A stretch of DNA of 64,000 nt from the NCBI GenBank assembly GCA_043732705.1, contig JAYTHE010000002.1:56385-120384 (forward strand), in the 5' to 3' direction. Both the position numbers and the translations under genes were made by a program. The DNA is from Candidatus Omnitrophota bacterium (GTDB lineage Bacteria > Omnitrophota > Omnitrophia > Omnitrophales > Aquincolibacteriaceae). Under the pieces are notes generated by a model that saw only the letters and a program-made list of their open reading frames with translations, was not told the origin of the DNA and did no database searches. The number at the start of each line of letters is the position of its first letter. Positions within the stretch are counted from its first letter, which is position 1. Of the stretch, positions 3,438 through 32,117 are shown in pieces.

Positions 3438-4234
3438 CAGTGAATAAAGAAATGCTTTCAGAGTTCAAAATTCTGAATATTGAAAATCTCACACGCCGTT
3501 TTGGCGGTGTGACGGCGATTGACGGTGTTAGCTTTGAAGTCCGTCAGGGACAAATTCTGAGTGTCATCGGCCCGAACGGCGCCGGTAAAACCACGCTTTT
3601 TAACTGTATTACCGGCCTTTACCGCCCCGATGAAGGTTCGATGTACTTCGGGGACTCACAAATGCTTTTAAACCGCATGCAGCCTTATGAAATCGCGGCC
3701 TGCGATATTTCACGCACGTTCCAAACCATCCGCCTTTTTAAAAATATGACGGCGCTTGAAAATGTGATGGTCGGCGCGCATTCCAAATTACGTTCGGGTA
3801 TGTTGAGCTGTTTGCTGCATCCGCGCTGGACACGCGTGGAGGAAAAACGCCTCGAACAGCGCGCGCACCGCCTGCTCGAATTTTTCTGCCTCAATGAAAA
3901 AGCGAATGAGCTGGCATGTAATCTTTCTTATGGGCATCAACGTAAACTTGAAATTGCGCGCGCGCTTGCGAGTGATCCCAAACTTTTACTTTTGGATGAG
4001 CCTGCGGCAGGCATGAACCCGAAAGAAAAAGAAGAATTGCTCGAACTGCTTTTCGCGATTCGCAGCCGCGGCGTGACGATTGTTTTGATCGAGCATGATA
4101 TGAAAGTCGTGATGCCGATTTCGGACCATATTGTGGTTTTGGATTACGGCAAAAAAATTGCCGAAGGGAAACCTAAAGAAATTCAAAATAACCCGTGTGT
4201 AATCGAAGCATATCTTGGAAAAACGACATGTTGA
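3434..4234 (+). CDS. livG: Branched-chain amino acid ABC transporter ATP-binding protein
   Basis: Walker A GPNGAGKTT, ABC signature LSYGHQRKLEIARAL and Walker B LLLLDEPAAG. The start overlaps the livM stop. Confidence 0.9.
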   Translation: MTVNKEMLSEFKILNIENLTRRFGGVTAIDGVSFEVRQGQILSVIGPNGAGKTTLFNCITGLYRPDEGSMYFGDSQMLLNRMQPYEIAACDISRTFQTIRLFKNMTALENVMVGAHSKLRSGMLSCLLHPRWTRVEEKRLEQRAHRLLEFFCLNEKANELACNLSYGHQRKLEIARALASDPKLLLLDEPAAGMNPKEKEELLELLFAIRSRGVTIVLIEHDMKVVMPISDHIVVLDYGKKIAEGKPKEIQNNPCVIEAYLGKTTC

Positions 4235-4239
4235 AAGCC

Positions 4240-4360
4240 GCACAAACCAAGGTAATTAAAATGTTCAGACAGCCGATGCTTCGCTCGGAACTCACATTTT
4301 AATTACCTTGGTTTGCGCTTGATTTTGAATTAAGGGCGTGGGAGCGATAAAAAGGAAAAA
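4240..4360. repeat. Short copy (c1) of the composite intergenic repeat family: a nested hairpin module plus a GGGCGTGGGAGCGATAAAAAGGA box
   Basis: Outer 24 bp inverted repeat GCACAAACCAAGGTAATTAAAATG / CATTTTAATTACCTTGGTTTGCGC. It encloses a conserved inner module TCAGACAGCCGA-tgcttcgc-TCGGAACTCA. The following box is similar to the GTGGGGTGGAGGCAATAAAAGGAG box of copies c2 and c4. Confidence 0.5.
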
Positions 4361-4457
4361 ATTTTTGCCTGCCGGCGGTCAAAAATTTTTCTATGATGCA
4401 TTTCATTCTCGCTTCTGCAGGAAGCAAGAATGAAAAGGGTTTAAAAAAAAGGCGAAA

Positions 4458-5165
4458 ATGTTGGAAGTAAAAAATTTACATTCAGGGTACGGGCCGATTG
4501 AAATTTTGAAAGGCGTGAATATTAAAATTTCGCAGGGAAAAATCGTGTCTTTGATTGGTTCTAACGGCGCGGGTAAAACCACCTTCCTTATGACGCTTTC
4601 CGGACTTTTACGCGCGCGTGAGGGTTCGGTTCAATTCGAAGGCCGCTGCCTTCAAAAAGCCTCTCCAAGCGATATTGTGCGGCAGGGAATTGTACAGGTG
4701 CCCGAAGGCCGGCGTATTTTTCCGAGAATGACTGTTTCTGAGAATCTGGATCTCGGCGCCTATACCCGCAAAGATAGCAAGCAGGCTGTGCAGCAGGATA
4801 AAGAAGAAATGCTCACCATGTTTCCAATTTTAAAGCAGCGCTATAACGGACAAGCGGGAAATTTGAGCGGCGGCGAACAGCAAATGCTCGCGATGGCGCG
4901 CGCGCTTATGGCCAAGCCCAAGCTTTTATTATTGGATGAACCGAGCCTTGGACTCGCGCCTAAAATGATCGAATTTATTTTTTCTTTGATCATGAAAATC
5001 AAAGAAAAAGGCCTGACGATTTTTTTGGTTGAGCAGAATGCCTGGAAAGCGCTAGAACTCGCCGATTATGCGTATGTCATCGAAAGCGGTACGATTCAGA
5101 TGGAAGGTGCCGGCAAAGAGCTATTGTCCAATCCACAGATTAAGCATGCTTATCTCGGCGCATAA
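4458..5165 (+). CDS. livF: Branched-chain amino acid ABC transporter ATP-binding protein
   Basis: Walker A GSNGAGKTT, signature LSGGEQQMLAMARAL and Walker B LLLLDEPS. Confidence 0.9.
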   Translation: MLEVKNLHSGYGPIEILKGVNIKISQGKIVSLIGSNGAGKTTFLMTLSGLLRAREGSVQFEGRCLQKASPSDIVRQGIVQVPEGRRIFPRMTVSENLDLGAYTRKDSKQAVQQDKEEMLTMFPILKQRYNGQAGNLSGGEQQMLAMARALMAKPKLLLLDEPSLGLAPKMIEFIFSLIMKIKEKGLTIFLVEQNAWKALELADYAYVIESGTIQMEGAGKELLSNPQIKHAYLGA

Positions 5166-5595
5166 TTTCACGCGCTATCAATTCCCCGTTCTCATTTGGA
5201 TGGTTTTCATTTTCATGCTTTCGTCGGCGCCCGCTGCGAATATACCCAATCCATTTCCGTACTTTCATCCTGCGGTGCATTTTGTGGAATATTCAGTCTT
5301 GGCCTTTCTTAGTGTGCGTGCGCTGCGCTACAAGCATCCCTGCCGGACTTTTGCGCTTATTGCCATCGTCACGTGGGGAATTGTGCTTTTATTTGCGGCA
5401 TCGGATGAATGGCATCAAACATTCGTTGCCGGACGAACGGGTCAGGGTAAAGATGTGCTTTTTGACGGCTTATACGCTTGGCTTGGAATCGGATTATTTT
5501 CGTTGGTGATTGGTAAAATTAAACCAAACAGTCATTTGGGGATTATTCAGAGCCGTCTTGTCCGATTTGTTTTTGAGACGAGAAGGAAACGCTAG
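5146..5595 (+). CDS. VanZ-like family membrane protein
   Basis: ASDEWHQTFVAGRTG matches the VanZ signature. Small polytopic membrane protein. The start is ambiguous; candidates are 5068, 5146 and 5200. Confidence 0.55.
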   Translation: MLISAHNFTRYQFPVLIWMVFIFMLSSAPAANIPNPFPYFHPAVHFVEYSVLAFLSVRALRYKHPCRTFALIAIVTWGIVLLFAASDEWHQTFVAGRTGQGKDVLFDGLYAWLGIGLFSLVIGKIKPNSHLGIIQSRLVRFVFETRRKR

Positions 5596-5604
5596 AAATA
5601 AAAA

Positions 5605-5640
5605 GAGCCGGCAGCAAAAAATCGCTGCCGGCTCAAATTT
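5605..5640 (+). terminator. Rho-independent terminator candidate after the VanZ-like gene
   Basis: GAGCCGGCAGC-aaaaaatc-GCTGCCGGCTC hairpin followed by AAATTT. Confidence 0.45.
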
Positions 5641-5977
5641 ATAAGTACGTTTATACAAGCAGCGGAGGAAACCGCGCACAGTGAAACTTACCTGGAGTTC
5701 TCAATTCAATAAACTTTTTTGACATAAGACACATATTTAACTCCGTTTTGCTTTTTATTAAAAATCAATCGGTTGTTTTCCTTTATGTGTTGCCTGTTAT
5801 TTAAATCCAAGCATTTCATCTAATCAGGTTAAGCACCGCAGTGCACCAAGGTTTAGATGTTTTAATGCTTATCTGAAATGTAATCACCTCTTATTGCTTT
5901 TACAAGAGCGAGTTATATCTTGCTATAAGCAAAAATTGCGGTTTTTCGCCCATCTTTTTCCGCATGCCGCCATGCTA

Positions 5978-6005
5978 TTGACACTGAAAAAAAAAGGCGT
6001 ATAGT
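5978..6005 (+). promoter_or_regulatory. Sigma70-type promoter candidate for the KimA-like transporter
   Basis: TTGACA at 5978-5983, a 16 nt spacer, then TATAGT at 6000-6005. Confidence 0.4.
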
Positions 6006-6009
6006 CCGC

Positions 6010-6130
6010 TCCTTATATGCCTAATCCGCTTTAACCAGCGGTACGGGGGACCCAAGTTCTTGGGGCGAATCATCGCAAGATGAAAGGTTATCTCGACCTT
6101 AGCCCGTCAGCTAACTTCGTCGGCATCAAG
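6010..6130 (+). promoter_or_regulatory. Candidate c-di-AMP (ydaO/kimA-type) riboswitch in the 5' leader of the APC transporter gene
   Basis: The leader contains ACGGGGGACCCA and UGGGGCGAAUCA elements between the promoter and the start codon. The downstream gene has the APC-plus-C-terminal-domain architecture of KimA (YdaO), the classic gene under this riboswitch. Called from memory of the motif and not verified by a covariance model. Confidence 0.4.
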
Positions 6131-6138
6131 GAGAAAAA

Positions 6139-8151
6139 ATGGAAACCAAACAGCCGGCATCCGGCTTGCCCGAGTCATTTCTTAAACAGATCAAAAAAAC
6201 TCTTTTCGGACCGCCCCGGAATCTTCACGATCCTTCGATCAAGCATCAGCTTTCTCTGATCGCATTTTTTGCTTGGGTTGGATTGGGTGCCGACGGACTT
6301 TCTTCTTCAGCCTACGGACCGGAAGAAGCTTTTCGCGCGCTCGGTCAAAATACCTATCTCGCCATCTTGCTTGCGGCAGCGACGGCATTAACTGTGTTTA
6401 TTATTTCCTCCGCCTACAGTCGCATTATTGAAACTTTTCCTTTGGGCGGCGGAGGTTACGTTGTCGCGACCAAGCTCTTAGGAAAGCCCGCTGGCGTAGT
6501 TTCGGGCAGCGCCTTGCTAGTGGATTACATTCTCACCATTACCGTTTCCATTGCTGGTGGAGGTGACGCGCTTTTCAGCCTTTTGCCGCAAGCCTGGATG
6601 GTTTTCAAACTACCGACAGAGATTGCCGCGATCGGTCTTTTGATCCTGATGAATTTGAGAGGCGTGAAAGAATCCGTTGCCGCGCTTGTGCCGATTTTTT
6701 TGATATTTGTGATCACGCACATCGTTCTCATTTTAGGTGGACTTTTGATTCATATTCCCGAAGCACCGCGCATTGCCAAAGAAGTGACGGATGGCTTTCA
6801 TTCTGGAGCATCCACGTTGGGATGGGGCGGCATGGCGCTGCTTTTTCTACGGGCCTATTCTTTAGGCGGCGGAACCTATACCGGAATTGAAGCTGTTTCC
6901 AACGGTGTCGGTATTTTGCGCGAACCCAAAGTGATTACCGGAAAAAGAACCATGCTTTATATGTCAGTCTCACTTGCGCTCACGGCGGGCGGGTTGCTTG
7001 TCTGCTATATGCTTGCGCATGTGAAGCCGGTGGATGGGCAAACTTTGAATACGGTTCTTGCAACACAATTGATGGGCCCTCTTCATGTCGCGGGTATTCC
7101 GATCGGCCATGCGATTGTTCTAATCACAATTTTATCCGAAGCCGTTTTGCTTTTGGTCGCGGCACAAACCGGATTTATTGACGGCCCGCGCGTAATGTCC
7201 AATATGGCGCAAGATTCATGGCTGCCGAAACGTTTCGCGATGCTTTCCGACCGTTTGACGATGCAAAACGGAATTCTTCTGATTGGCGCCGCTTCGATTG
7301 CGATTCTTGTCTACACTCGCGGCCACATAGGAACCTTAGTGGTTATGTATAGTATCAATGTGTTTTTGACTTTCTCTTTATCGGAATTAGGAATGATGCG
7401 GCATTGGTTTCAAAGCCGCAAAATTTCTAAAAAATGGAAGCGTGACTTTTTGATTCAAGCCGCGGCATTTACGCTCTGCTTCTCGATTCTTTGTGTCATG
7501 GTGTATGAAAAATTTACAGAGGGCGCGTGGGTGACTTTGTTGATTACTTCTTCCTGCATCGCGCTTTGCTTCATCATTAAAAACCATTATTACAGTGTCG
7601 CGAAGCGTATCCATGAAATCGATAAATTATTTGAAGCTGTTCCGCCGGATAACCGCGCGGCAGCGATGCTAGAATTTAATGAGAAAAATCCAACAGCGGT
7701 AATTTTAGTCGGCGGACATAGCGGATTAGGCACGCATATTCTTTTGAATATTTTCAGGTTATTTCCAAGCTCATTTAAGAATGTGGTGTTTTTAACCATT
7801 GGTATTGTGGACAGTACTTTTTTTAGGGAGAACAACCAAGTTGAAGTGGTCACGAAACAAAGCGAAGACATGCTCGGGCGTTATGTCGAAAGCGCGCGTC
7901 ATATGGGTGTTCCCGCGCGGTTTGAGTTTCATGTGGGCACGGAAGTGGTACAGTCGGCCGCGGAGCTTTGCATTGAGGTTTCAAAAAAATATCCCCGCGC
8001 GGTCTTTTTTGCGGGCGAGCTCGTGTTTGAACAGCCGCAGTGGTATCACCGCATTCTGCACAATGAGACAGCGTATGCGATTTTAAGACAAATCCGGTTC
8101 GCGGGATTGCCGATGGTTATTCTTCCGATACGGATTCGAGAGAAACTCTGA
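6139..8151 (+). CDS. APC-superfamily permease with a C-terminal cytoplasmic domain, possibly a KimA-like K+ transporter
   Basis: About 12 TM segments (aa 40-470) followed by a roughly 200 aa soluble domain. A riboswitch-like leader precedes it. Confidence 0.55.
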   Translation: METKQPASGLPESFLKQIKKTLFGPPRNLHDPSIKHQLSLIAFFAWVGLGADGLSSSAYGPEEAFRALGQNTYLAILLAAATALTVFIISSAYSRIIETFPLGGGGYVVATKLLGKPAGVVSGSALLVDYILTITVSIAGGGDALFSLLPQAWMVFKLPTEIAAIGLLILMNLRGVKESVAALVPIFLIFVITHIVLILGGLLIHIPEAPRIAKEVTDGFHSGASTLGWGGMALLFLRAYSLGGGTYTGIEAVSNGVGILREPKVITGKRTMLYMSVSLALTAGGLLVCYMLAHVKPVDGQTLNTVLATQLMGPLHVAGIPIGHAIVLITILSEAVLLLVAAQTGFIDGPRVMSNMAQDSWLPKRFAMLSDRLTMQNGILLIGAASIAILVYTRGHIGTLVVMYSINVFLTFSLSELGMMRHWFQSRKISKKWKRDFLIQAAAFTLCFSILCVMVYEKFTEGAWVTLLITSSCIALCFIIKNHYYSVAKRIHEIDKLFEAVPPDNRAAAMLEFNEKNPTAVILVGGHSGLGTHILLNIFRLFPSSFKNVVFLTIGIVDSTFFRENNQVEVVTKQSEDMLGRYVESARHMGVPARFEFHVGTEVVQSAAELCIEVSKKYPRAVFFAGELVFEQPQWYHRILHNETAYAILRQIRFAGLPMVILPIRIREKL

Positions 8152-8173
8152 CTTTGTCGGATATAATAAAAGC

Positions 8174-8968
8174 ATGCTAGAGTTAATGAGGCCAAAGAAA
8201 CCATCGCGGGGACTGCTGCTTGCTGAACAAGTCGGGCTGTTGAAGAAAATCAGCATAAAAGATTTGGAACAGCTTTATCTTTTTTATAAACCGGGAATTA
8301 TAAAAAACTCTGAAAAAAGCTTGGGCCATGATGGCTATGTTTGCGGATTCAGTCGCAACCTTTCGAATTCAGAAGGTGTTTCCCTGCGGGATTATTTTGT
8401 TGAGCGGGGCTTGGACGGCGATTACTCACCGGAGGAAATGATTGCTTTCGGTCGGCTTGATAAAGATACCTCCGGCCTGCTTGTTCTCGCAAGACGTAAC
8501 CGCTATCCCAAATTTATGGACCAGCTACTTCTTAATCCGCTTTGGAAAAAAGAAAGCATTCTCACTTCCAAGCTTTACCGCGCAAAAGTCAAAGGACTTG
8601 TTTCTTCTGCGGCGCTATCAAAAATCAAAACGCTCAAAATTCCGAGTAAGAATGAAACCGTGATTGAAGTGACAGTGGAAAGTATTCGACTCGTTTCTAC
8701 AGATCAGCCCGACAGGGGAAATTCGTCCTCGGTGGTTGAAATTGAAATTCATGAAGGCAAACATCATCAAGTTAAAAAAATGCTGCAAGCGATCAAGCAT
8801 CCTGTGCTGAAGGGCGGTTTGCACCGTGTCCGTTTTGCGATGATGTCCATCGGTGAAATGAAGGTAGGCCAGATTAGAAATTTGCTGCCGAAAGAAAAGA
8901 AACAGCTTGTGAAACTTTACAATGAGTGGCTGGCGTCAGAAAGAATTCGTTTCAATATTCAAAACTGA
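8174..8968 (+). CDS. Pseudouridine synthase, RsuA/RluB-like family
   Basis: GRLDKDTSGLLVLA catalytic-Asp motif and a downstream GKHHQVKKM motif typical of RsuA-family pseudouridine synthases. Confidence 0.6.
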   Translation: MLELMRPKKPSRGLLLAEQVGLLKKISIKDLEQLYLFYKPGIIKNSEKSLGHDGYVCGFSRNLSNSEGVSLRDYFVERGLDGDYSPEEMIAFGRLDKDTSGLLVLARRNRYPKFMDQLLLNPLWKKESILTSKLYRAKVKGLVSSAALSKIKTLKIPSKNETVIEVTVESIRLVSTDQPDRGNSSSVVEIEIHEGKHHQVKKMLQAIKHPVLKGGLHRVRFAMMSIGEMKVGQIRNLLPKEKKQLVKLYNEWLASERIRFNIQN

Positions 8969-11357: not shown

Positions 11358-11641
11358 CAAGCGGTCCGGGATGGTCTCTGTCTTCCGATGACGAACCTAA
11401 GCCGGTTAAAAAAGCCAATCCTGATTCTCCCAAGCCCCAGATTCGATTGGAAAAAAGAGCCGGGAAATATGTTACGGTGATTGCGGGTTTGCATACTTAT
11501 GGCTCAGACCGGTTGAATACAATTGCCAAAGAATTAAAATCGCTTTGCGGTTCCGGTGGAACTGTTAAGGACGGGGTGATTGAAATTCAAGGCGATAAAG
11601 TAAAAGTTATTCAGGCCTGGTTTCAAAAGAATATCAAGTAG
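11345..11641 (+). CDS. yciH: SUI1/YciH-family translation initiation factor
   Basis: [16 protein letters not shown]...[17 protein letters not shown] is the SUI1 domain signature. The preferred start MEKMTSG overlaps the end of tag. Confidence 0.75.
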
Positions 11642-12512
11642 AAGGCATTTTGAGCAAGTGTCCGAGCTGTTCTTTATCTTGCTCAGAATCATCAGTTTGA
11701 GAATCCGATGACTGCGCCGCTTTGGCAGCGAGCCCCTGCATGTCTGCGGGCGCTTTTGACAAAGAGCTTTTTTCTGTAGCCGCAGCGCCTTGCTCAACGT
11801 GTATTTTGCCCTTTTCATCGATCATAAAATGACTGGATTTATCCGCGCCTTGAATGGGATCGGCATACACTTGGGCTCCCTGGTCGGTTGCTTCGACTCG
11901 AAAGCGGTAACCATTTTTGCCGTCTTTATAACTCGGATCGACTCCGCCTTCTTTAATTAACCTGTCCAAGTTTAACTTTTTTGTTCCGCCTTCTTCCATG
12001 GCGATGGCGGTTGCCTGGGAATGAAGATTGCGAAGGTCAACCATGACCGAAAGTTCAGAAGCATAATTTTTTAATGCGCCAAGATCAAGGCCTCCGAACA
12101 TTTTTTTTAATTGCTCCAAGGGGTCCAAAGACGACGCGGAAGCGGGAGGTGCGGCTGGAAGAGACGCTGCTTGCTGCATTAGCGGCAGCGGTTGAACCGG
12201 GGCCGCCGGTGCGGGAACTGCGGCAGGATGATTGCCGCCTTTAATGCGCTGCTCGGAAATTTTCCCCGCGGCATCTTTTACAAAAATCCGGTCCTGTTTG
12301 ACTTCCATGACTTGATAGCCCTGGTATTGTTCGCCTTTTTTATAAATATTTCCGTCAATGACGGCAAAGGACTGAGAGGGATTTTTGGATTCATAGACGA
12401 TACCTTCGACCGGAAGAGCTTCGTCTACCGCGTAAGATTTTTCCGTAAGGGGAAAAATGACAAGGATGGCGGCCGCGCACAAGAATAAACATGGGTTGTT
12501 AGAACATTGCAT
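11634..12512 (-). CDS. Secreted hypothetical protein with a Pro/Ala-rich linker, possibly pilus or secretion related
   Basis: Signal peptide [28 protein letters not shown]. The track ORF extends to 12551 and the inner ATG is preferred. No firm family assignment. Confidence 0.4.
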
Positions 12513-12665
12513 ATATTTTATTTCGACTTCCCCTATAAAAACATGACTCACTAAAAGTGTGCCGTTATCTTATAAATATTAAAAGGGTAGAAGCATTGTT
12601 TTTGCTTTCGTTTTAGAATAGGAAAGTTAATAAATTTTTTGAAAAACTTATTTAAGGACAGAAAA

Positions 12666-13672: not shown

Positions 13673-15256
13673 TTGGAAATACGAAATAATGAGGTTCCTG
13701 TGAAGCATTTGCCGACAGCATCGGAGATTCCGGATTTTAGAACCCTCTTTGAATCCGCCCCGGGATTATATCTCGTCCTCAATCCCGATTTGACGATTAT
13801 CGCTGTCAGCGATAATTATTTGCGCGCGACCATGACCGAGCGTGTAAAAATCCTCAACCGGAATCTTTTTGAGGTTTTTCCCGATAATCCGGATGATCCC
13901 AACGCGACCGGCGTGCGGAATTTAAAAGCTTCTTTGGAGCGCGTCTTTAAAAACAGAATTCCCGATAAGATGGCTGTTCAAAAATACGATATTCGCCGTC
14001 CGGAATCGGAAGGCGGAAAATTTGAAGAAAGGTATTGGAGCCCGTTGAATACGCCTGTTTTTGAAAAGGGGCGCAAAGGTATCGCCTACATCATTCATTG
14101 CGTGGAAGACGCGACGGAACTTGTTCGCTTGAGGCGGCACGGTGATGAACAGAAAAAATGGGCCGCTCAAAAATTCCAAAGTCTTCTCGATGCCGCGCCG
14201 GATGCGATGGTTATTATGAATCGCGACGGAGGAATTGTGCTTATGAATGCGCAATGTGAAAGTATTTTTGGGTTCAGACACGATGAATTGTTTGGAAAGC
14301 GAATAGAGGTTTTAATTCCCAATTGGTATCACTCTCAGTATTTCGGCCGGGGCGAAGACAATTTTTCAAATTTTCAAGCTTCGTCCACGCGACTTGATAC
14401 GGATCTTTCCGCTCTGCGTAAGGATCAGACGGAGTTTCCGGTGGAAATTAGTTTAAGTCCGCTGACGACAGAAGAAGGAACGCTTGTGATAGCTGCAATT
14501 CGTGATATCACGGAAAGGAAAAAAGCGGAAAAGATGATTCTTCAAAAAACAGCGGACCTTGTGCGCTCCCAATCGGAGCTGGACCAATTGGAGCTATTTG
14601 CTTTCGCCGCCACGCATGATTTACGAGAACCTCTGCACAAGATTGTTACGTTGGGAGACCTCTTGGATATTCATAGCGGAATGCTTCTCGATGAAAATGG
14701 AAAAAACTACCTTATGCGGATGCGTGTTGCCGCCAAAAAAATGGCGGAAATGTTCGATCAGCTGCGAACTTTATCTCAAATTGTGGCGGGCGGGCATTCT
14801 TTCGAGCCCCTGGATTTACAAAACATCATTCGCGAAGTAGTTGCGGATTTAGATGTCCGCGTGATGGAGGTTAGAGCGAAAATTGAAGTGGGAAATTTTC
14901 CCAAAGTCAAAGCGGACCCGACTCAAATGCGGCAGCTCTTTCAAAATTTGATTGCGAATGCCTTAAAATTCAGAAAAGAGAACGAGCCTTTAAAGATTGC
15001 AATTGAAAACTTTGAAGCGGGTCAAGGATTTATTGGAATTGCCGTGAAAGATAACGGCATTGGGTTTGACGAAAAGTATTTAGGGCGAATTTTCAAGCCT
15101 TTTCAAAGATTGAATTCCACGGGAGCCTACGGCGGAAGCGGAATAGGTCTGGCGATTTGTCATAAAATAGTTTTACGCCATGGTGGACAAATTACGGCGC
15201 AAAGCGCTCCCGGGCAGGGAACAGTTTTTTTTGTGAGCTTGCCGAGCCATAGTTAG
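13673..15256 (+). CDS. PAS-domain sensor histidine kinase
   Basis: PAS segments, an H-box ATHDLREPLHKI and an ATP-binding G-box GGSGIGLAICHKIV. Confidence 0.8.
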   Translation: MEIRNNEVPVKHLPTASEIPDFRTLFESAPGLYLVLNPDLTIIAVSDNYLRATMTERVKILNRNLFEVFPDNPDDPNATGVRNLKASLERVFKNRIPDKMAVQKYDIRRPESEGGKFEERYWSPLNTPVFEKGRKGIAYIIHCVEDATELVRLRRHGDEQKKWAAQKFQSLLDAAPDAMVIMNRDGGIVLMNAQCESIFGFRHDELFGKRIEVLIPNWYHSQYFGRGEDNFSNFQASSTRLDTDLSALRKDQTEFPVEISLSPLTTEEGTLVIAAIRDITERKKAEKMILQKTADLVRSQSELDQLELFAFAATHDLREPLHKIVTLGDLLDIHSGMLLDENGKNYLMRMRVAAKKMAEMFDQLRTLSQIVAGGHSFEPLDLQNIIREVVADLDVRVMEVRAKIEVGNFPKVKADPTQMRQLFQNLIANALKFRKENEPLKIAIENFEAGQGFIGIAVKDNGIGFDEKYLGRIFKPFQRLNSTGAYGGSGIGLAICHKIVLRHGGQITAQSAPGQGTVFFVSLPSHS

Positions 15257-15275
15257 CAAAGAAAGGTAGGATTGA

Positions 15276-15722
15276 ATGGTCAATAAAAAAAAACCAATTA
15301 TTTTAATGGCGGAAGACGATGACGACTTTTACACCCTGTTTAAAGAGGCATTTAAACAGTTGGATTCGGCCGGCGAAATCCGGCGTGTTGAAGACGGAGA
15401 AGCCCTGATGGATTATCTTCTGCGGCGCGGAGAATATCAGAACCCGGATCTGTCACCCGCACCCGGAATAATTTTTTTAGATTTAAACATGCCGAAGAAA
15501 AACGGCCTTGAAGCTTTGAGAGAAATTCGCTCGAACCCAGCACTCAGAAGCATTCCGGTAGTTATGCTCACGGTTTCTAATAATAAAAGCGATGTCCTTC
15601 TCAGTTACAAACTTGGCGTGAATTCTTTCGTGACCAAGCCCTACGAATTCAACCGGCTCGTTGAGGTGCTAAAAGTTTTTCAACAGTATTGGTTTGAAAC
15701 AGTTGAACTTCCCGGGGCGTAG
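15276..15722 (+). CDS. Single-domain response regulator (CheY-like receiver)
   Basis: Receiver domain with the phospho-acceptor context IFLDLNMP. Confidence 0.8.
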   Translation: MVNKKKPIILMAEDDDDFYTLFKEAFKQLDSAGEIRRVEDGEALMDYLLRRGEYQNPDLSPAPGIIFLDLNMPKKNGLEALREIRSNPALRSIPVVMLTVSNNKSDVLLSYKLGVNSFVTKPYEFNRLVEVLKVFQQYWFETVELPGA

Positions 15723-15769
15723 CGTTTCAATTTTTTTATGGATGGCCTCTTATTGAAAGGATTGCAATT

Positions 15770-16645
15770 GTGAAAAGTGAAAAAGGCACCATTTTAGTCG
15801 CGGATGATGAAAGAGATGTTTTGACAGGCTTAGTTCATATTCTTGAAAATGTCGGATATGAGGTTTATACGGCATCAAACGGGAATGAAGCGCTTCAAAA
15901 AGCAGCCGAGTTTTCGCCGGATCTCATTTTGCTTGATGTTCTTATGCCCGGCATGGATGGCAAAGAAGTTAAAGCCAAGTTGAATGATGATCCCGGCCTT
16001 GCTGAAACCCCGGTTATTTTTCTCAGCGCAAAAAAAGCAACGAATGATAAGTTAGACGGATTTTTGCTCGAAGCCGAAGATTACATTACCAAGCCTTTTG
16101 AGGTCGTGGAGCTTTTGGCGCGTGTTCGGTCTGTTCTTCGCCGCCGCCGGCATTATGAAGAAATTTCTATGACCGATGGTTTGACCGGGCTTGCCAATGT
16201 TCACCTTTTGAAGCGCGAGTTGAACCTGTTCTTTAATATCGCAAAACGCTACAAACATTTTTTTTCAATCGTAGTTTTTGATATCGACAATTTTAAGGTT
16301 ATCAACGACAGTTTTGGCCATCGTGCCGGAGACGAGGTCATTAAGTGGGTGGCGGTTTCGCTTAAGGAATGTTTGCGGGAAGCCGATTTGGTTGCGCGCT
16401 GCGGCGGCGATGAGTTTGTCGCACTTTTTCCGCATACGGCGGGCAAGCAGGCTGAAGTACCGCTTCTCCGTTTCCGTGAAGTATTAAAAAAAGGATTGCA
16501 GCTTGCAGGGAAAAGCCAAGTGATCACCGTTTCAGTCAGTGCCGGGATCGCGGTTTACAATCCGGATATCCAAAAAGCCTGGGACCTTTTTGAATCAGCT
16601 GATAAAGAAATGTACGTCGAAAAAGCTGCGAAAAAAGTTCAATAA
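15770..16645 (+). CDS. Response regulator with a GGDEF diguanylate cyclase output domain
   Basis: N-terminal receiver (LLDVLMPGMDG) followed by RCGGDEF. Confidence 0.8.
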   Translation: MKSEKGTILVADDERDVLTGLVHILENVGYEVYTASNGNEALQKAAEFSPDLILLDVLMPGMDGKEVKAKLNDDPGLAETPVIFLSAKKATNDKLDGFLLEAEDYITKPFEVVELLARVRSVLRRRRHYEEISMTDGLTGLANVHLLKRELNLFFNIAKRYKHFFSIVVFDIDNFKVINDSFGHRAGDEVIKWVAVSLKECLREADLVARCGGDEFVALFPHTAGKQAEVPLLRFREVLKKGLQLAGKSQVITVSVSAGIAVYNPDIQKAWDLFESADKEMYVEKAAKKVQ

Positions 16646-24873: not shown

Positions 24874-26058
24874 GTGAAGAAAATTTTAGTTGTTCTGATT
24901 CTTTTAGCTTTCGCATCGGCGGGATGGTTTTATTTCAACCGTGTGCATGGGGACTTGTCGGCAAGTCATGCGCAAGAACAGTATCAATGTCCTATGCATC
25001 CGCAAGTGGTTCAAGATCATCCCGGAAATTGCCCGATTTGCGGCATGCGGCTGAATCATTTAGCCTCCGAGCCTTCGGCTCAACCGGCGGAAGGGCAAAA
25101 AAAAATAGCCTTTTACCGTAATCCGATGAATCCTAAGGTTACCTCGCCCGTTCCCGCGAAAGATGAAATGGGTATGGATTATATTCCGGTCTATCAACAG
25201 ACGGGAGATGCTCTGCCCGCATCCGATGTGCCTGATCATGGTGCGGTGATGCTCAGCGCGGATAAAATTCAAACCATCGGAATTCGTACGGCTGAAGCGC
25301 GCATCAGCAATTTAATTCTCTCTTTGCGTGTCACCGGCACAGTTTTCCACAATCATGAAATTTACGAAATGCTTACGGCTTATCGTGATGCGATTCAGGT
25401 CGAACAGCGTGTCAAAAAACCGACGCCGGAACTTGTAGCGCAGTCGCGCGTCAAAGCTAATGATTTGCGGATTAAGTTGCGGAGGTATGGCATCGGCGAT
25501 GAGGTGTTTAAGAAAGCGGCAGAGAACTTGGCGGATCCCACCAGTTTTATCCCTGCACATTTAATTATCGCAGCCAACGGAGCGTATGTGGACGCGCGTT
25601 TGCCGGCTGCGGAAGCTGTTCGTGTGGCTTTGGGACAAAAAGCTCGGCTGATGTCATCACTTTTTCCGGATAAAACTCTTGATGGAATTGTGAAGTCAGT
25701 CGATTCAATTGTGGATTCAGAAACTCAAACTGTCGCTGTGCGGATTGAAGTTCAGAATGGACATGAGCTTTTGAGGCCCGGACTTTTTGTGAATGTGGAA
25801 ATGGATATTGAGACAGGCAATAAGCTTGCGGTTCCGGAAGACGCGATTTTAAATTCGGGGCGTGGCGCTTATGTGTTCATTGAAAAATCCGCGGGTGTTT
25901 TTCTGCCAAAGCATGTTGAAACCGGATTGACCGCCGGAACAAACGTGGAAATTATCTCGGGGCTTGCTGAAGGAGAGAAGGTGGTCATTTCAGCAAATTT
26001 TCTTTTAGATTCTGAGTCGCGCTTCGAAGCCGCGCGGCAAGGTGGTTCCTATGATTGA
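24874..26058 (+). CDS. cusB: RND efflux periplasmic adaptor (CusB/SilB-like) with an N-terminal CPMHP metal-binding module
   Basis: YQCPMHPQVVQDHPGNCPICGM module plus membrane-fusion-protein beta-barrel/lipoyl regions. Confidence 0.8.
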   Translation: MKKILVVLILLAFASAGWFYFNRVHGDLSASHAQEQYQCPMHPQVVQDHPGNCPICGMRLNHLASEPSAQPAEGQKKIAFYRNPMNPKVTSPVPAKDEMGMDYIPVYQQTGDALPASDVPDHGAVMLSADKIQTIGIRTAEARISNLILSLRVTGTVFHNHEIYEMLTAYRDAIQVEQRVKKPTPELVAQSRVKANDLRIKLRRYGIGDEVFKKAAENLADPTSFIPAHLIIAANGAYVDARLPAAEAVRVALGQKARLMSSLFPDKTLDGIVKSVDSIVDSETQTVAVRIEVQNGHELLRPGLFVNVEMDIETGNKLAVPEDAILNSGRGAYVFIEKSAGVFLPKHVETGLTAGTNVEIISGLAEGEKVVISANFLLDSESRFEAARQGGSYD

Positions 26059-29000
26059 AAAAATCATTGATTTTTCGGCGCGTAACAAATTTTTGGTGAT
26101 TATCTTTACCATTGCGACGCTTACTGTCGCTTGGTTTTCGATGCGCCATATGCCGCTTGATGCGATTCCCGACCTTTCGGATACGCAGGTCATTGTCTAT
26201 TCGCAGTGGGATCGCAGTCCGGATTTGATGGAAGATCAGGTTACGTATCCGATTGTAACCGCGATGCTCGGCACGCCGAAGGTGAAAGCTGTGCGCGGGT
26301 TTTCTGATTTTGGATATTCATATGTTTATATTATTTTTGAAGACGGCACCGACCTTTATTGGGCACGTAGCCGTGTGCTTGAATATTTAAGCAAGATTCA
26401 ATCGCGTTTGCCCGAAGGTGTTAAGACTGAACTTGGTCCTGATGCAACCAGCGTTGGCTGGGTTTATCAATATGCTTTGGCGGATGATACGGGCCGCCGC
26501 ACTTTGCCTGAATTGCGCTCCGTGCAGGATTGGTATTTGCGTTATGCCTTGCAGGCTGTTCCGGGTGTTTCGGAAGTTGCCGCAGTGGGCGGATTCGCAA
26601 AGCAAGCTCAGGTTAATGTTGATCCAGAAAAACTTCGCGCATTTAATTTATCGATTGGTGATGTGGTTAATGCCGTCAAAGCTTCGAATCAATCGACAGG
26701 CGGCCGTTTGCTTGAAGTGAATGGTTTTGAATTCATGGTTCGCGCTCAAGGTTATGCAAAAACACCCGCAGATATCGGATCAGCGGCGATTCGCACGAAT
26801 TCGCGTACCGGCGCGGCTATTTTAGTGCGCGATGTTGCAAAAGTGGAATGGGGCCCTGAAATGACGCGCGGTGCGGCGGAGCTCGATGGCAAAGGCGACG
26901 CGGTTGGCGGCATTATTGTGATGCGTCACGGTGAAAACGCTTTGCATGTGATTGAGCGCGTGAAAGCTAAACTTAAAGAGCTGCAAAAGACTTTGCCCGA
27001 AGGCGTACGTATTGTTGAAACTTATGACCGTTCGGATTTAATTCATCGTGCGATTGAAACGCTGAAGCATACGCTGATCGATGAAATGCTGATTGTGAGT
27101 TTCGTAATTTTGATTTTTCTTTGGCATTTGCCTTCCGCGATTATTCCGATCATCACAATTCCGGTTTCGGTATTGCTCGCGTTTATTCCGATGACCATGA
27201 TGGGTTTAACTTCCAATATTATGTCGCTCGCAGGCATTGCGATTTCAATTGGCGTGCTTGTCGACGGCGCGATTGTCGAAGTTGAAAACGCTTATAAAAA
27301 ACTTCAGCTTTGGCAGGATGGCGGTCGCAAAGGCGATTACCACGAAGTGCGTCTTGCCGCACTGAAAGAAGTTGGTCCCGCGGTTTTCTTTTCACTGCTT
27401 GTGATTGCCGCTGCTTTTGTTCCGGTTTTTACACTTGTGGACCAAGAAGGCCGTTTGTTTAAGCCGCTAGCTTACAGTAAAAATCTGGCGATGGTGATTG
27501 CGGCGATTTTGGCGGTGACTTTGGATCCCGCGATGCGCATGCTTTTTACGCGCATGGATCCCTTTCAATTTAAGCCGCGTTGGCTTGCAAGCGTCGCGAC
27601 CACGCTTGCGGTTGGAAAATATTATCCCGAAGAAAAACATCCCGTCAGCCGCGTACTTTTTAAACTGTATGAGCCGGCCGTGCGTTTTGTTTTGCGTTTT
27701 AGAAAAACAACGCTACTGGCAGCTGTGCTGTTGATGGTGGTGACTGTGCCTGTTTTTCAAAAGTTGGGCAGTGAATTTATGCCGCCGCTCAATGAGGGTA
27801 CTTTGCTCTATATGCCGACGGCATTGCCCGGTATGTCGGTCACGGAAGCACGCCGTGTTTTGAATATTCAAAACCGCATATTGATGAAATTTCCGGAGGT
27901 TGAACATGTTTTTGGAAAAGCCGGCCGCGCGGAAACTTCAACCGATCCCGCGCCGCTTTCCATGATGGAAACCACGATTACGCTTCGTCCTAAATCAGAG
28001 TGGCGGCACAAACCCGTGGTTTATCCGGCATGGCTGCCCGCGCTTTTGCACGATTTCTTTCAAAAAATTCACCCTGACCGTGCGATGACAATGGATGAAT
28101 TGACCGATGAAATGGATAAGCAATTGCAATTGCCCGGTATTCCCAATATTTGGACTATGCCGATTAAAAATCGAATTGATATGCTTTCAACCGGCATTCG
28201 CACGCCTGTTGGGGTGAAAGTTTTAGGCTCGGATCTCAAAGTCATTCAAAAGGTGGGTGAAAATCTTGAGCAAATTCTGAAAACCGTGCCCGGTACGCGC
28301 AATGCTTTTTCCGAACGTGTTTCCGGCGGATATTTTATCGACTTTGATTTGAAGCGCGACGCGCTCGCGCGTTACGGAATTTCAGTTGACGCAGCCGAAG
28401 CCACAATTTCATCAGCAATCGGCGGGGAAGTTGTGACTCATTTGGTGGATGGCCGCGAACGTTATTCCGTGAATGTGCGGCTCGCGCGTGATTTTCGTTC
28501 CGATCTTCCGTCTTTGGGACGCGTGCGTGTTAAAGCCCCTTCGGGCACCGATATTCCGATTTCAGAATTGGCGGAACTGACAAAACGTGAAGGCCCTGCG
28601 ATGATTCGCGATGAAAACGGCATGCTCGCAGGCTATGTTTATGTCGATGTGGCCGGACGTGATATCGGCAGCTTTGTCGTGGAAGCCAAGCGTAAAGTGA
28701 ATGAAGCTGTGAAAGTTCCGGCTGGCTATCAGCTGGTGTGGAGCGGGCAGTATGAAAATATGCAACGCGTTACGGAGCGTTTAAAATTTGTGATTCCCAT
28801 TACACTTTTTATTATCGCCTTACTGCTTTATATGAATACCAAGTCAGCAGTGAAAACCGCGATGGTTTTACTCGCGGTTCCGTTCTCCTTAATCGGCGCG
28901 GTTTGGTTGCTGCATTTGCTCGGTTATAACATGTCGATTGCCGTGTGGGTGGGGATGATTGCCTTGATGGGGCTCGATGCCGAGACCGGCGTTTTTATGC

Positions 29001-29299
29001 TGCTCTATCTGGATATCGCCTATGCTGATGCTGTGCGCGAAGGCCGTATGCGTAACCGCGCAGATCTTCACGCCGCGGTTTTGCATGGTGCGGTGAAACG
29101 CGTGCGCCCCAAAATGATGACGGTAATCGCGGCCATGGCCGGGCTTTTACCGATTCTCTGGGCGCATGGTGCCGGGGCGGATGTGATGCGCCGCATTGCC
29201 GCGCCGATGATCGGTGGGCTCGCGTCATCATTTGCGCTCGAACTTCTCATTTATCCGGTGCTGTATTCTTTTTGGAAAGAAAGAGAATTGAAAAAATAG
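26042..29299 (+). CDS. cusA: Heavy-metal efflux RND permease, CusA/CzcA family
   Basis: 1085 aa 12-TM RND protein in the HME family, translationally coupled to cusB. Confidence 0.9.
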   Translation: MVPMIEKIIDFSARNKFLVIIFTIATLTVAWFSMRHMPLDAIPDLSDTQVIVYSQWDRSPDLMEDQVTYPIVTAMLGTPKVKAVRGFSDFGYSYVYIIFEDGTDLYWARSRVLEYLSKIQSRLPEGVKTELGPDATSVGWVYQYALADDTGRRTLPELRSVQDWYLRYALQAVPGVSEVAAVGGFAKQAQVNVDPEKLRAFNLSIGDVVNAVKASNQSTGGRLLEVNGFEFMVRAQGYAKTPADIGSAAIRTNSRTGAAILVRDVAKVEWGPEMTRGAAELDGKGDAVGGIIVMRHGENALHVIERVKAKLKELQKTLPEGVRIVETYDRSDLIHRAIETLKHTLIDEMLIVSFVILIFLWHLPSAIIPIITIPVSVLLAFIPMTMMGLTSNIMSLAGIAISIGVLVDGAIVEVENAYKKLQLWQDGGRKGDYHEVRLAALKEVGPAVFFSLLVIAAAFVPVFTLVDQEGRLFKPLAYSKNLAMVIAAILAVTLDPAMRMLFTRMDPFQFKPRWLASVATTLAVGKYYPEEKHPVSRVLFKLYEPAVRFVLRFRKTTLLAAVLLMVVTVPVFQKLGSEFMPPLNEGTLLYMPTALPGMSVTEARRVLNIQNRILMKFPEVEHVFGKAGRAETSTDPAPLSMMETTITLRPKSEWRHKPVVYPAWLPALLHDFFQKIHPDRAMTMDELTDEMDKQLQLPGIPNIWTMPIKNRIDMLSTGIRTPVGVKVLGSDLKVIQKVGENLEQILKTVPGTRNAFSERVSGGYFIDFDLKRDALARYGISVDAAEATISSAIGGEVVTHLVDGRERYSVNVRLARDFRSDLPSLGRVRVKAPSGTDIPISELAELTKREGPAMIRDENGMLAGYVYVDVAGRDIGSFVVEAKRKVNEAVKVPAGYQLVWSGQYENMQRVTERLKFVIPITLFIIALLLYMNTKSAVKTAMVLLAVPFSLIGAVWLLHLLGYNMSIAVWVGMIALMGLDAETGVFMLLYLDIAYADAVREGRMRNRADLHAAVLHGAVKRVRPKMMTVIAAMAGLLPILWAHGAGADVMRRIAAPMIGGLASSFALELLIYPVLYSFWKERELKK

Positions 29300-29376
29300 C
29301 TTAAGCATAGGGTTTTACCTGATGGTTGCTGTTTTAATTTAGAAGAGAATAAGGATTCAAAATAAAAGGAGAAGTT

Positions 29377-29853
29377 ATGAAACAGTTAAATTTAGCTCTA
29401 CGGCCTCGTCGCAATCGCGTAACGTGTTTGGTTTTTATGCTGCTCGCGGTTGTGACATTGTCTTTGCCGCTTTATGCTGATTGTGACTCATCTGAAAGAA
29501 ATGGAACGATGAGCGAAGAAAGGGAGAGTGAGAGAGGTATGATGGGCGGCGGGAAAATGGAAATGCACGGCATGATGATGAAAATGATGATGCAAAAATC
29601 AGTCGTGGCAACGTCAGACGGCGGCATTGTAATTGTTGCCGGGAATAAAATTACTAAATACGACAAACATCTCAAGCTTGTGAATGAAGTCGAAACCAAA
29701 ATGGATATAGAAGACATGGAAAAGAAAATGAAGGGAATGATGAAGATGTGTCCCCTGATGAAGGGTGGAATGAAAACCAGAGAGGAACGGCCTGAAGAAG
29801 CTGTGTCAGGCGCTTCATCTGACGCAGACAGTGACCACTCGGCGCATCATTGA
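29377..29853 (+). CDS. Met-rich secreted protein, likely Cu(I)/Ag(I)-binding
   Basis: A signal peptide and runs such as [19 protein letters not shown] and [16 protein letters not shown]. Confidence 0.5.
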
Positions 29854-29863
29854 AGAGAGGTTT

Positions 29864-32038
29864 ATGAAAGAGCACGCTTGCTGTCGTTCTCCAGTTAAAG
29901 CAGAGCAACCGCCGCCAAAAAATGCCGGTGGTTACACTTGTCCGATGCATCCGGAGATTGAGCAAGACCATCCCGGAACTTGCCCAAAATGTGGAATGGC
30001 GTTAGAACCCAAAAATGCTTCTGCTGCGCCTGAAAATCAAGAATATCACGATATGTTGCGACGATTCTGGGTGAGCTTAGGTCTTTCTGTGCCCGTTGCC
30101 TTTTTTGCCATGACCGAAATGCTTCCAAATAGGCCGTTTCAAAGTTTTTTATCTATGCAGCATGTGAATTGGATCGAATTTGTTCTTGCAAGTGTTGTTG
30201 TGTTTTGGGGAGGGCTACCTTTTTTTGAGCGCGGTGTGGCGTCGATTATTCATCGCAGCTTGAATATGTTCACGCTTATCGCATTGGGTGTGGGTGTGGC
30301 GTATGTTTACAGCGCCTCTGCAACGCTTGCGCCTGGAATTTTTCCGGCAAACTTTCGCGGGCACGGCGGTGAAGTGGCGGTTTATTTTGAAGCCGCGTCT
30401 GTTATTACCGTTTTAGTTTTGCTGGGGCAGGTTTTAGAATTAAAAGCTCGTACGCAAACCGGTGAAGCGATTCAAGCACTTTTAAATCTTGCGCCAAAAA
30501 TGGCGCGTGTTATCGCGGCGGATGAAATAGAAAAAGACATTCCTATCGAAAATGTGCAGCGTGGCGATAAGTTACGTGTGCGGCCCGGCGAAAAAATTCC
30601 GTCGGATGGTTTGGTTGTGGATGGCGAGAGCGCAGTGGATGAATCGATGGTTACTGGCGAATCTATGCCCGTTGAAAAATCTAAAGGCTCAAAAGTTGTC
30701 GGCGGCACGGTCAATGGCACAGGCAGTTTAATTGTGCAGGCTGAAAAAATCGGCAGTGAGACTTTGCTTGCTCAAATTGTGCATATGGTCGGTGAAGCAC
30801 AACGCAGCAGAGCGCCGATCCAGCGTTTGGCCGACATCGTTGCGGCTTATTTTGTTCCGATGGTTTTGGTTGTAGCAGCGATTACTTTTTTTATTTGGGG
30901 GTTTTTCGGACCGGAACCGAAAATGGTTTATGCGATTGTAAATGCTGTGGCGGTATTGATTATTGCTTGTCCTTGCGCGCTAGGGCTTGCGACACCGATG
31001 TCTATTATGGTCGGCGTAGGCCGCGGCGCAACAGCCGGAATTTTAATCAAGAATGCCGAAGCGCTGGAGGTTTTTAGAAAAGTTGATACTCTGATTTTTG
31101 ATAAAACGGGCACGCTCACCGAAGGTAAACCCAAACTTGTTTCCGTTGCTTCCGCGCCCGGAATGAACGAAGCTGATTTTTTACGATTTGCCGCCAGTTT
31201 AGAACGCGCAAGCGAACACCCATTGGCGCAGGCGATTGTTAAAGGGGCCGAAGCAAAAGGTGTTCGCTTTTCCGAAATCCAAAATTTTAAATCGGTTACC
31301 GGCAAAGGCGTTCAGGGCACTTTGGACCGCAAGCAGGTTCTTCTCGGGAATCAAAAATGGATTGAAGAGCTGGGCGTTATTACCACGGATTTTTCCGCGC
31401 AAGCAGACAAGCTGCGTGAAGACGGCCAGACGGTTATGTTTGTGGCGGTTGAAAAGAAAATTGCGGGAATACTTGGCGTGGCCGATGCGGTTAAAGATTC
31501 GACGCCGGAAGCCATTCAATTGCTGCACCAAGACGGCCTCAGGCTCATTATGGTTACCGGCGACAATCCGGTCACGGCAAATGCGGTAGCAAAAAAACTG
31601 GGCATTGACGAAGTGCGCGCGGGTGTTTTGCCCGAGCAAAAAGGCGCAATTGTGAAAGAATTACAGGCGCAAGGCAAGCGTGTCGCGATGGCAGGTGATG
31701 GCGTGAATGACGCGCCCGCGTTGGCGCAGGCGGACGTGGGTATCGCCATGGGAACAGGTACGGATGTTGCGATGCAAAGCGCGGGAGTCACGCTTGTCAA
31801 AGGTGATTTGCGCGGCATTGCCAAGGCGCGCGCATTAAGCCGCGCGACGATGGCCAATATCCGTCAAAATCTTTTTTTCGCATTTATTTACAATCTTCTC
31901 GGTGTGCCGGTTGCCGCGGGAATTTTGTATCCTTTTTTTGGAATTTTGTTGAGTCCGATTATCGCCAGCGCAGCCATGGCTTTTAGTTCAGTTTCGGTTA
32001 TCATGAATGCATTGCGCCTACGCCGTATTTCTCTCTAG
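29864..32038 (+). CDS. copA: Copper-translocating P1B-type ATPase
   Basis: N-terminal [22 protein letters not shown] module, a TM CPC motif ([13 protein letters not shown]), DKTGTLT phosphorylation and [10 protein letters not shown] hinge motifs. The start is chosen at 29864 after an AAGAGAGG SD. Confidence 0.9.
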
Positions 32039-32117
32039 TTTTTGTCAAAATCTCAACCCTGATTTGTTTCCATTTGGTATGCGCAAATTTATTAAATCAA
32101 GAGTAAAATAAACGCTT

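Follow-up and report, generated by a model that had tools for sequence, protein, structure and literature searches.

The stretch of DNA that was analysed (64 kb, G+C content of 46%; henceforth called the window) carries on its forward strand a short structured leader and, directly behind it, an open reading frame for a membrane transporter. A Liv-type ABC transporter is encoded upstream of the leader, and further genes of the window code for VanZ, a pseudouridine synthase, YaeQ, PntAB, and FolD, the last of these with a relative of 56% identity in an Omnitrophica MAG. A perfect 13-bp GC-rich palindromic hairpin at 5605-5634 is terminator-like on the reverse strand only, where the U-run is located, and no convincing reverse-strand gene was found to its right; it could be a bidirectional vanZ terminator or mark an unannotated small RNA of the reverse strand. 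Rfam matches below threshold at 5550-5722 all traced back to one palindromic hairpin and were discarded. Between the hairpin at 5605-5634 and the riboswitch promoter lies an AT-rich spacer of 340 nt (5635-5977), in which all open reading frames are at most 37 aa long. The leader and the gene behind it comprise the following features:

5978..5983 (+), -35 hexamer TTGACA; matches the consensus and recurs in related loci
6000..6005 (+), -10 hexamer TATAGT; 16-nt spacer, promoter identical to the consensus at 11 of 12 positions
6008..6140 (+), c-di-AMP riboswitch aptamer (RF00379); full-length Rfam match, match to covariance model R1, and covariation in 20 loci
6009..6014 (+), CUCCUU tract; perfect complement of the Shine-Dalgarno sequence AAGGAG, located upstream of or at the predicted start of transcription
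6018..6021 (+), 5' strand of P1, UGCC; from the Rfam alignment, with a possible fifth pair A6017-U6126
6043..6054 (+), conserved ACGGGGGACCCA element; its ACGGGG pairs with CUUCGU at 6115-6120 (helix)
6061..6072 (+), conserved UGGGGCGAAUCA element; GGG at 6063-6065 pairs with CCC at 6103-6105
6085..6099 (+), hairpin AGGU-UAUCUCG-ACCU; UCUC at 6091-6094 in its loop corresponds to the pseudoknot 5' strand of the class
6103..6120 (+), conserved CCCGUCAGCUAAC core and 3' strand of the long-range helix; invariant in alignment A2 and identical to the crystallised construct
6122..6125 (+), 3' strand of P1, GGCA; from the Rfam alignment and covariation
6128..6134 (+), Shine-Dalgarno sequence AAGGAG(A); GAGA at 6131-6134 corresponds to the pseudoknot 3' strand, and 5 nt separate the Shine-Dalgarno sequence from the AUG
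6139..8151 (+), kimA-like gene, 670 aa; putative KimA-subfamily K+/H+ symporter that carries a cytosolic domain at its C terminus

The leader was identified via its match to RF00379 (c-di-AMP riboswitch, ydaO/yuaA leader), which extends over 6008-6140 (+) and spans model positions 1-134 of 134 with 85.5 bits (E-value 1.7e-18), i.e., more than twice the gathering threshold of 38. A local rerun on the riboswitch gave an E-value of 2.4e-20, and a chance match can thus be dismissed. RF00379 was the sole family of Rfam 15 to reach its gathering threshold in the whole 64-kb window, and a permissive local Rfam scan of the window yielded nothing further of note. An initial annotation made from the sequence had proposed a riboswitch of the ydaO/kimA class at this site, which the RF00379 search bears out, and both ydaO-like elements that it had pointed to in the leader, ACGGGGGACCCA and UGGGGCGAAUCA, are present. 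The extent that it had given (5978-6135) begins correctly with the promoter, but its end falls short, as the aptamer reaches 6140 with a tail that holds the Shine-Dalgarno sequence and touches the AUG.

The CGGGGGACCCA, GGGGCGAAUC, and CCCGUCAGCUAAC cores match the crystallised c-di-AMP-bound ydaO RNA (4QLM construct; its sequence was taken from PMC5393176) exactly and are invariant in the relatives, CGGGGGACCCA being the stretch of the ACGGGGGACCCA element that is identical in the crystallised construct. The CCCGUCAGCUAAC core region at 6103-6120 was invariant in all eight sequences of alignment A2. We take these three sequences to be the pseudo-symmetric cores that line two ligand pockets, the contact nucleotides being likewise assumed. 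Judged by its sequence, the window aptamer would bind c-di-AMP.

For comparison, loci of relatives were used that consisted of one genome contig (L002) and 80 metagenome contigs encoding homologues of the downstream protein. L002 belongs to a Candidatus Omnitrophota MAG and was the sole relative obtained from the scan of the genome collection (65% identity of the transporter); the transporters of the 80 metagenome loci have identities of 49-70%. In L002, RF00379 immediately precedes the orthologous gene (83.3 bits), and it was found at or above the gathering threshold in six of the 20 metagenome loci tested (61.7-92.9 bits). A covariance model (R1) was built from the RF00379-positive loci, against which the window aptamer scored 121.8 bits. 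Across 82 sources (the window, L002, and the 80 metagenome loci), R1 detected the aptamer in 20, of which 19 were full-length and one was truncated. The detected aptamers were always located on the strand of the gene and immediately upstream of the kimA-like gene; all five of the closest relatives (61-70% identity) carry one, but in the family at large the share drops to about a quarter.

In the alignment of the 20 leaders, 94.1% of the cells form standard pairs and 16 of the 23 pairs change on both sides, although the alignment was fitted to a model from the same sequences and leans slightly towards structure. The pairs of P1 (helix 1 of this alignment) covary between GC and AU and between CG and UA. 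As controls, the columns were shuffled 500 times, none of which reached the observed values, and the 3' partners were slid by 1-3 columns, with which pairing dropped to 35-47%.

The promoter TTGACA-16-TATAGT, which the initial annotation had already recognised, was located at 5978-6005 and is the sole forward-strand promoter-like site in 5500-8400. A site of the form TTGAC(A/T)-16/17-TAnnnT was found upstream of the aptamer in eight loci (the window, L002, L004, L005, L006, L016, L020, and L048), with the -10 element ending 10-18 nt before the first base of P1, and L044 has a weaker site (ATGACA-18-TATCCT) upstream of its aptamer. The conservation of promoters just upstream of the aptamer argues for a riboswitch with its own promoter, the transcripts of which would start a few nucleotides 5' of P1. 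From the geometry of the promoter, transcription in the window is predicted to start at about 6012-6015. The initial annotation had reported a leader of 130 nt; a leader is present, and with a transcription start near 6012 it would measure about 127 nt, almost all of it aptamer.

The open reading frame at 6139-8151 starts with ATG at 6139, preceded by the Shine-Dalgarno sequence AAGGAG at 6128-6133. Its Pfam assignment is AA_permease_2/AA_permease, and no NCBIfam model matches the 670-aa transporter. Bacillus subtilis KimA (6S3K, 8B70, 8B71) was its sole sequence match in the PDB (phmmer, E-value 1.9e-59, residues 18-499), and a profile of 28 homologues matched KimA (6S3K) at an E-value of 1.3e-75. 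The two proteins are about 25% identical and differ in length (670 aa in the window versus 607 aa in B. subtilis), and a plain sequence search aligns the C-terminal domain merely around ILHNETAY. An AlphaFold2 model with a mean pLDDT of 75.5 (moderate) has a C-terminal alpha/beta domain with five strands (519-523, 548-556, 593-600, 621-630, and 659-666, with helices between them) and four main helices. The cytosolic domain of KimA has been described in the same terms (PMC10284832). In a Foldseek search against the PDB, the top three matches were KimA 8B70, 8B71, and 6S3K (E-values of 2.8e-25 to 9.2e-20). These alignments spanned 630-644 columns and hence included the C-terminal domain (636 columns for the best E-value of 2.8e-25), with NKCC/KCC and amino-acid APC transporters trailing by about 15 orders of magnitude.

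In KimA, K+ coordination and gating have been attributed to D36, Y43, T121, T230, and Y377, and H+ coupling to E233 (PMC6994465, PMC10284832). These residues align with D52, Y59, T133, T248, Y404, and E251 of the window protein, all six of which are invariant in the 28 homologues. By sequence, predicted fold, and conserved residues, the 670-aa protein is a KimA homologue, in line with the architecture of an APC permease plus C-terminal domain that the initial annotation had read as KimA-like. It shares with B. subtilis KimA, a K+/H+ symporter of the KUP family, the LeuT-fold transmembrane domain followed by the C-terminal alpha/beta cytosolic domain, the K+ site, the H+-coupling residues, and the H-N of the c-di-AMP pocket. 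The pocket of KimA is formed by R337, H579, N580, Q581, and S582 (PMC10284832). H579 and N580 align with H641 and N642, both invariant in the 28 homologues, in a pocket segment that aligns weakly (domain score -1.2); there, S582 corresponds to the nearly invariant T644 and Q581 to E643, and R337 is replaced by K364 followed by R365. As the transporter appears to retain part of the KimA pocket, c-di-AMP could plausibly inhibit the protein directly, as it does in B. subtilis.

Among its relatives that bear a name, those closest to the transporter come from Candidatus Omnitrophota MAGs (P0035/P0244 with 70% and L002 with 65% identity), and its relatives span uncultured Omnitrophota, Acidobacteriota, Verrucomicrobiota, and others. 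Where names are given in the databases, they read "APC family permease," "amino acid transporter," or "hypothetical protein."

Neither a diadenylate cyclase nor a c-di-AMP phosphodiesterase was found within the window. The GTRHR motif was absent from the six-frame translations of both the 64-kb window and related loci totalling 526 kb, and Pfam detected no DisA_N domain among the window's open reading frames of at least 130 aa. At 13673-16645 (+), a PAS histidine kinase, a stand-alone receiver, and a receiver-GGDEF diguanylate cyclase are encoded in a row; given this cyclase, the organism appears to signal with c-di-GMP as well. A heavy-metal efflux cluster at 24874-33113 (+) comprises a CusB/HlyD-like adaptor with HMBD, an AcrB/CusA-like RND pump (1085 aa), a P-type ATPase with HMBD, and a CDF transporter. 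A single open reading frame of 4563 aa at 41261-54952 (+) is a giant fusion of NAD-metabolism-type enzyme domains (CN_hydrolase plus NAD_synthase, NUDIX, isochorismatase/nicotinamidase-like, NAPRTase_N in two stretches, Inositol_P, and HAD), without a Pfam match over residues 1-527, about 1100-2240, and about 3960-4563. For the open reading frames at 37899-40409 (+, 836 aa) and 11634-12551 (-, 305 aa), no Pfam family was found at an E-value of at most 1e-5.

Between the aptamer and the kimA-like gene, no forward-strand terminator-like site was found. The 3' strand of P1 ends at 6125 and the AUG is located at 6139, leaving 13 nt between them, and the 3' tail of the aptamer, still within the Rfam model, is at the same time the Shine-Dalgarno sequence of the kimA-like gene. 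Ten further loci lack a terminator as well, giving 11 in total (the window, L002-L006, L033, L038, L040, L043, and L065). In these, P1 and the start codon are 12-18 nt apart, the interval holds a purine-rich Shine-Dalgarno sequence, and the 3' strand of the pseudoknot ends 2-6 nt before the start codon, so that this strand is the Shine-Dalgarno sequence itself. In L016, L020, L044, L048, and L079, the aptamer is succeeded by a terminator consisting of a hairpin and a U-run, and the start of the gene is at a greater distance. One aptamer-gene pair is thus fitted with two differing expression platforms across the carrier loci.

In the relatives, the purine tract behind P1 can pair with the last hairpin's loop in duplexes of 5-9 bp. 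Loop and tail covary between loci, e.g., UCCCUUAG/CUAAGGGA in L016, CUUUCC/GGAAAG in L043, CUUUCAAG/UUUGGAAG in L044, and GUUUCUCUC/GAGAGGAGC in L003; the pairs UCCGG/CCGGA in L020 and GCCUC/GAGGC in L037 were read from the alignment by eye, and automated duplex scoring chose other duplexes there. The pseudoknot was scored by the best duplex per sequence with shuffle and tail-permutation controls, and, summed over loci, pairing of the loops with their own tails exceeded that with tails exchanged between loci in all of 2000 permutations. Counts in fixed alignment columns (alignment A3) were dropped, as the register of loop and tail shifts by 1-6 nt between sequences. In the crystallised ydaO RNA, as read here, the loop CUCCUUCG is complementary to the tail CGAAGGAG (sequence from PMC5393176). 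We identify this complementarity of loop and tail with the ydaO-class pseudoknot, which has support for the family as a whole. The loop of the window (UAUCUCG at 6089-6095, 7 nt) is 3 nt shorter than that of the crystallised RNA, and its pseudoknot consists of UCUC at 6091-6094 with GAGA at 6131-6134, i.e., 4 bp, which do not stand above shuffled tails (fraction 0.79).

In a plain minimum free energy fold, the CUCCUU tract at 6009-6014 pairs with AAGGAG at 6128-6133 and thereby extends P1. This helix requires that transcription start no later than about 6010; three pairs are left if the transcript begins at 6012, and none if it begins at 6015, in which case the Shine-Dalgarno sequence is predicted to be open. 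For starts at 6012-6015, the Shine-Dalgarno sequence is mostly unpaired in the plain secondary-structure ensemble. The tract is not conserved in L002, in L003, or in the L040 group. The CUCCUU/AAGGAG helix was therefore downgraded as the main helix sequestering the Shine-Dalgarno sequence, since it is lost with the predicted start and is not conserved in relatives. Whether the Shine-Dalgarno sequence is hidden by the pseudoknot or by this helix, the regulatory logic is the same. Rho-dependent termination or mRNA decay, as a consequence of repressed translation, might contribute in addition. A GC-rich hairpin (AGCCGG-CAU-CCGGCU) at 6152-6166 (+) begins 13 nt downstream of the kimA-like start codon; it has no forward-strand U-run and is hence not a terminator, and it might affect initiation or act as a pause- or Rho-related element.

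The mechanism that we propose would begin at the sigma70-type promoter at 5978-6005, from which a leader of about 127 nt, nearly all of it aptamer, would be transcribed. At high c-di-AMP, the RNA would bind its ligand and adopt the compact pseudo-symmetric aptamer fold, which would close P1 (6018-6021 with 6122-6125) and pull AAGGAGA at 6128-6134 into the pseudoknot with UCUC of the loop at 6091-6094; the hiding of the Shine-Dalgarno sequence may be aided by the 5' leader where it briefly extends P1. Hidden from the 30S subunit, the Shine-Dalgarno sequence would support less synthesis of KimA, so that the riboswitch would act as an OFF switch. At low c-di-AMP, the tail would be free and the importer would be translated. 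Translational control is implied by the combination of a missing terminator, a Shine-Dalgarno sequence in the aptamer tail, and an AUG 13 nt behind P1, and we infer both the OFF direction and the translational mode as the most economical mechanism. The parts of this explanation are held with different confidence. The identity of the riboswitch and its KimA-type target are close to certain; the explanation as a whole (riboswitch, KimA target, and translational OFF switch), weighted towards identity, is regarded as highly probable; and the translational mechanism taken for itself is regarded as probable.

KimA (ydaO) is the founding target of the RF00379 class, and c-di-AMP control of KimA-type uptake is best known in Bacillota. 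With the B. subtilis ydaO (kimA) riboswitch, the window shares the full model, the covarying helices, the pocket sequences, and the kimA gene family; in the relatives, the pseudoknot between loop and 3' tail that is typical of the class covaries as well. Compared with the prototype in B. subtilis, an intrinsic terminator is missing, the tail being the Shine-Dalgarno sequence with the AUG 13 nt after P1; the pseudoknot loop of 7 nt is unusually short and pairs over 4 bp; and the host belongs to an uncultured, non-Bacillota lineage. None of these three differences is categorically new. The c-di-AMP riboswitch of Corynebacterium glutamicum nlpC has no canonical terminator either, reporter data point to translational repression, and a CUCC element has been proposed to pair with GGAG of the ribosome binding site as a pseudoknot (PMC9960051). 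Given this precedent, the translational variant is not new in kind. The nlpC case differs in its gene (a cell-wall peptidase) and its phylum, whereas in the window the Shine-Dalgarno sequence lies in the canonical 3' tail of the class and the evidence is comparative, from orthologous kimA-like leaders.

Three other explanations were weighed. The aptamer could be genuine but control transcription, by Rho-dependent termination in the early open reading frame or by mRNA decay, with occlusion of the Shine-Dalgarno sequence as a trigger or as an irrelevant feature. The B. subtilis prototype works by premature termination (PMC9960051), terminators follow the aptamer in the orthologous L016, L020, L048, L044, and L079, the pseudoknot of the window is weak, and the GC-rich hairpin at 6152-6166 is located just inside the open reading frame. 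However, this hairpin has no U-run, the forward strand has no intrinsic terminator-like site between aptamer and gene, and the gap from P1 to the AUG is merely 13 nt, with the Shine-Dalgarno sequence inside the aptamer tail in 11 loci; we therefore consider transcriptional control unlikely and retain translational control as the preferred reading.

It is still less likely that the downstream protein is an APC permease for amino acids or polyamines, which would link the riboswitch to the uptake of osmolytes or amino acids instead. Such a role would agree with Pfam giving AA_permease_2/AA_permease alone and NCBIfam having no model, with relatives being listed as "APC family permease" or "amino acid transporter," and with an identity to KimA of just about 25%; yet KimA is the sole sequence match in the PDB and the best fold match by 15 orders of magnitude over APC/CCC transporters, with the C-terminal domain covered, and all residues for K+ binding and H+ coupling that were defined by mutagenesis are invariant. 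The least probable of the three, to which we give hardly any weight, is a decayed or altered aptamer that keeps the ydaO fold but does not respond to the ligand or responds to another one, the leader being a constitutive structured 5' UTR. A full-model score that exceeds the gathering threshold more than twofold, the intact cores ACGGGGGACCCA, GGGGCGAAUC, and CCCGUCAGCUAAC, which are the same as in the crystallised c-di-AMP-bound RNA, the retention of the aptamer with compensatory changes among relatives with 49-70% protein identity, and a gene context that is the founding one of the riboswitch class all argue against such a decay, for which the cyclase not seen within the 64-kb window and the pseudoknot loop, which lacks 3 nt relative to the crystallised RNA, could be cited. 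A c-di-AMP riboswitch controlling a KimA-type transporter hence remains the preferred reading, and the organism would use c-di-AMP to control K+ uptake, a conclusion that the initial annotation had drawn conditionally and for which the riboswitch itself is the basis.

A more far-reaching version, which we regard as tentative and rather doubtful, is that the uncultured lineage, together with the wider set of kimA-like leaders, uses a single-domain, purely translational switch without a separate expression platform, in which the Shine-Dalgarno sequence is the 3' strand of the pseudoknot; in the window, with its pseudoknot loop shrunk to four pairing bases, the hiding of the Shine-Dalgarno sequence would have moved in part to the 5' CUCCUU tract that extends P1.

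The relatives of the 670-aa protein carry generic names, so the assignment is of value for annotation, and a possible use would be a compact translational c-di-AMP sensor in reporter design. The comparison indicates that many kimA-like leaders appear to be without a terminator and to carry the Shine-Dalgarno sequence in the aptamer pseudoknot. With one data point, the locus would extend c-di-AMP control of KimA-type K+ uptake to an uncultured lineage, probably of the Omnitrophota. If the single-domain reading were true, it would, together with the partly kept c-di-AMP pocket of the protein, carry the two-tier control of K+ uptake by c-di-AMP, at the levels of RNA and protein, well beyond the Bacillota.
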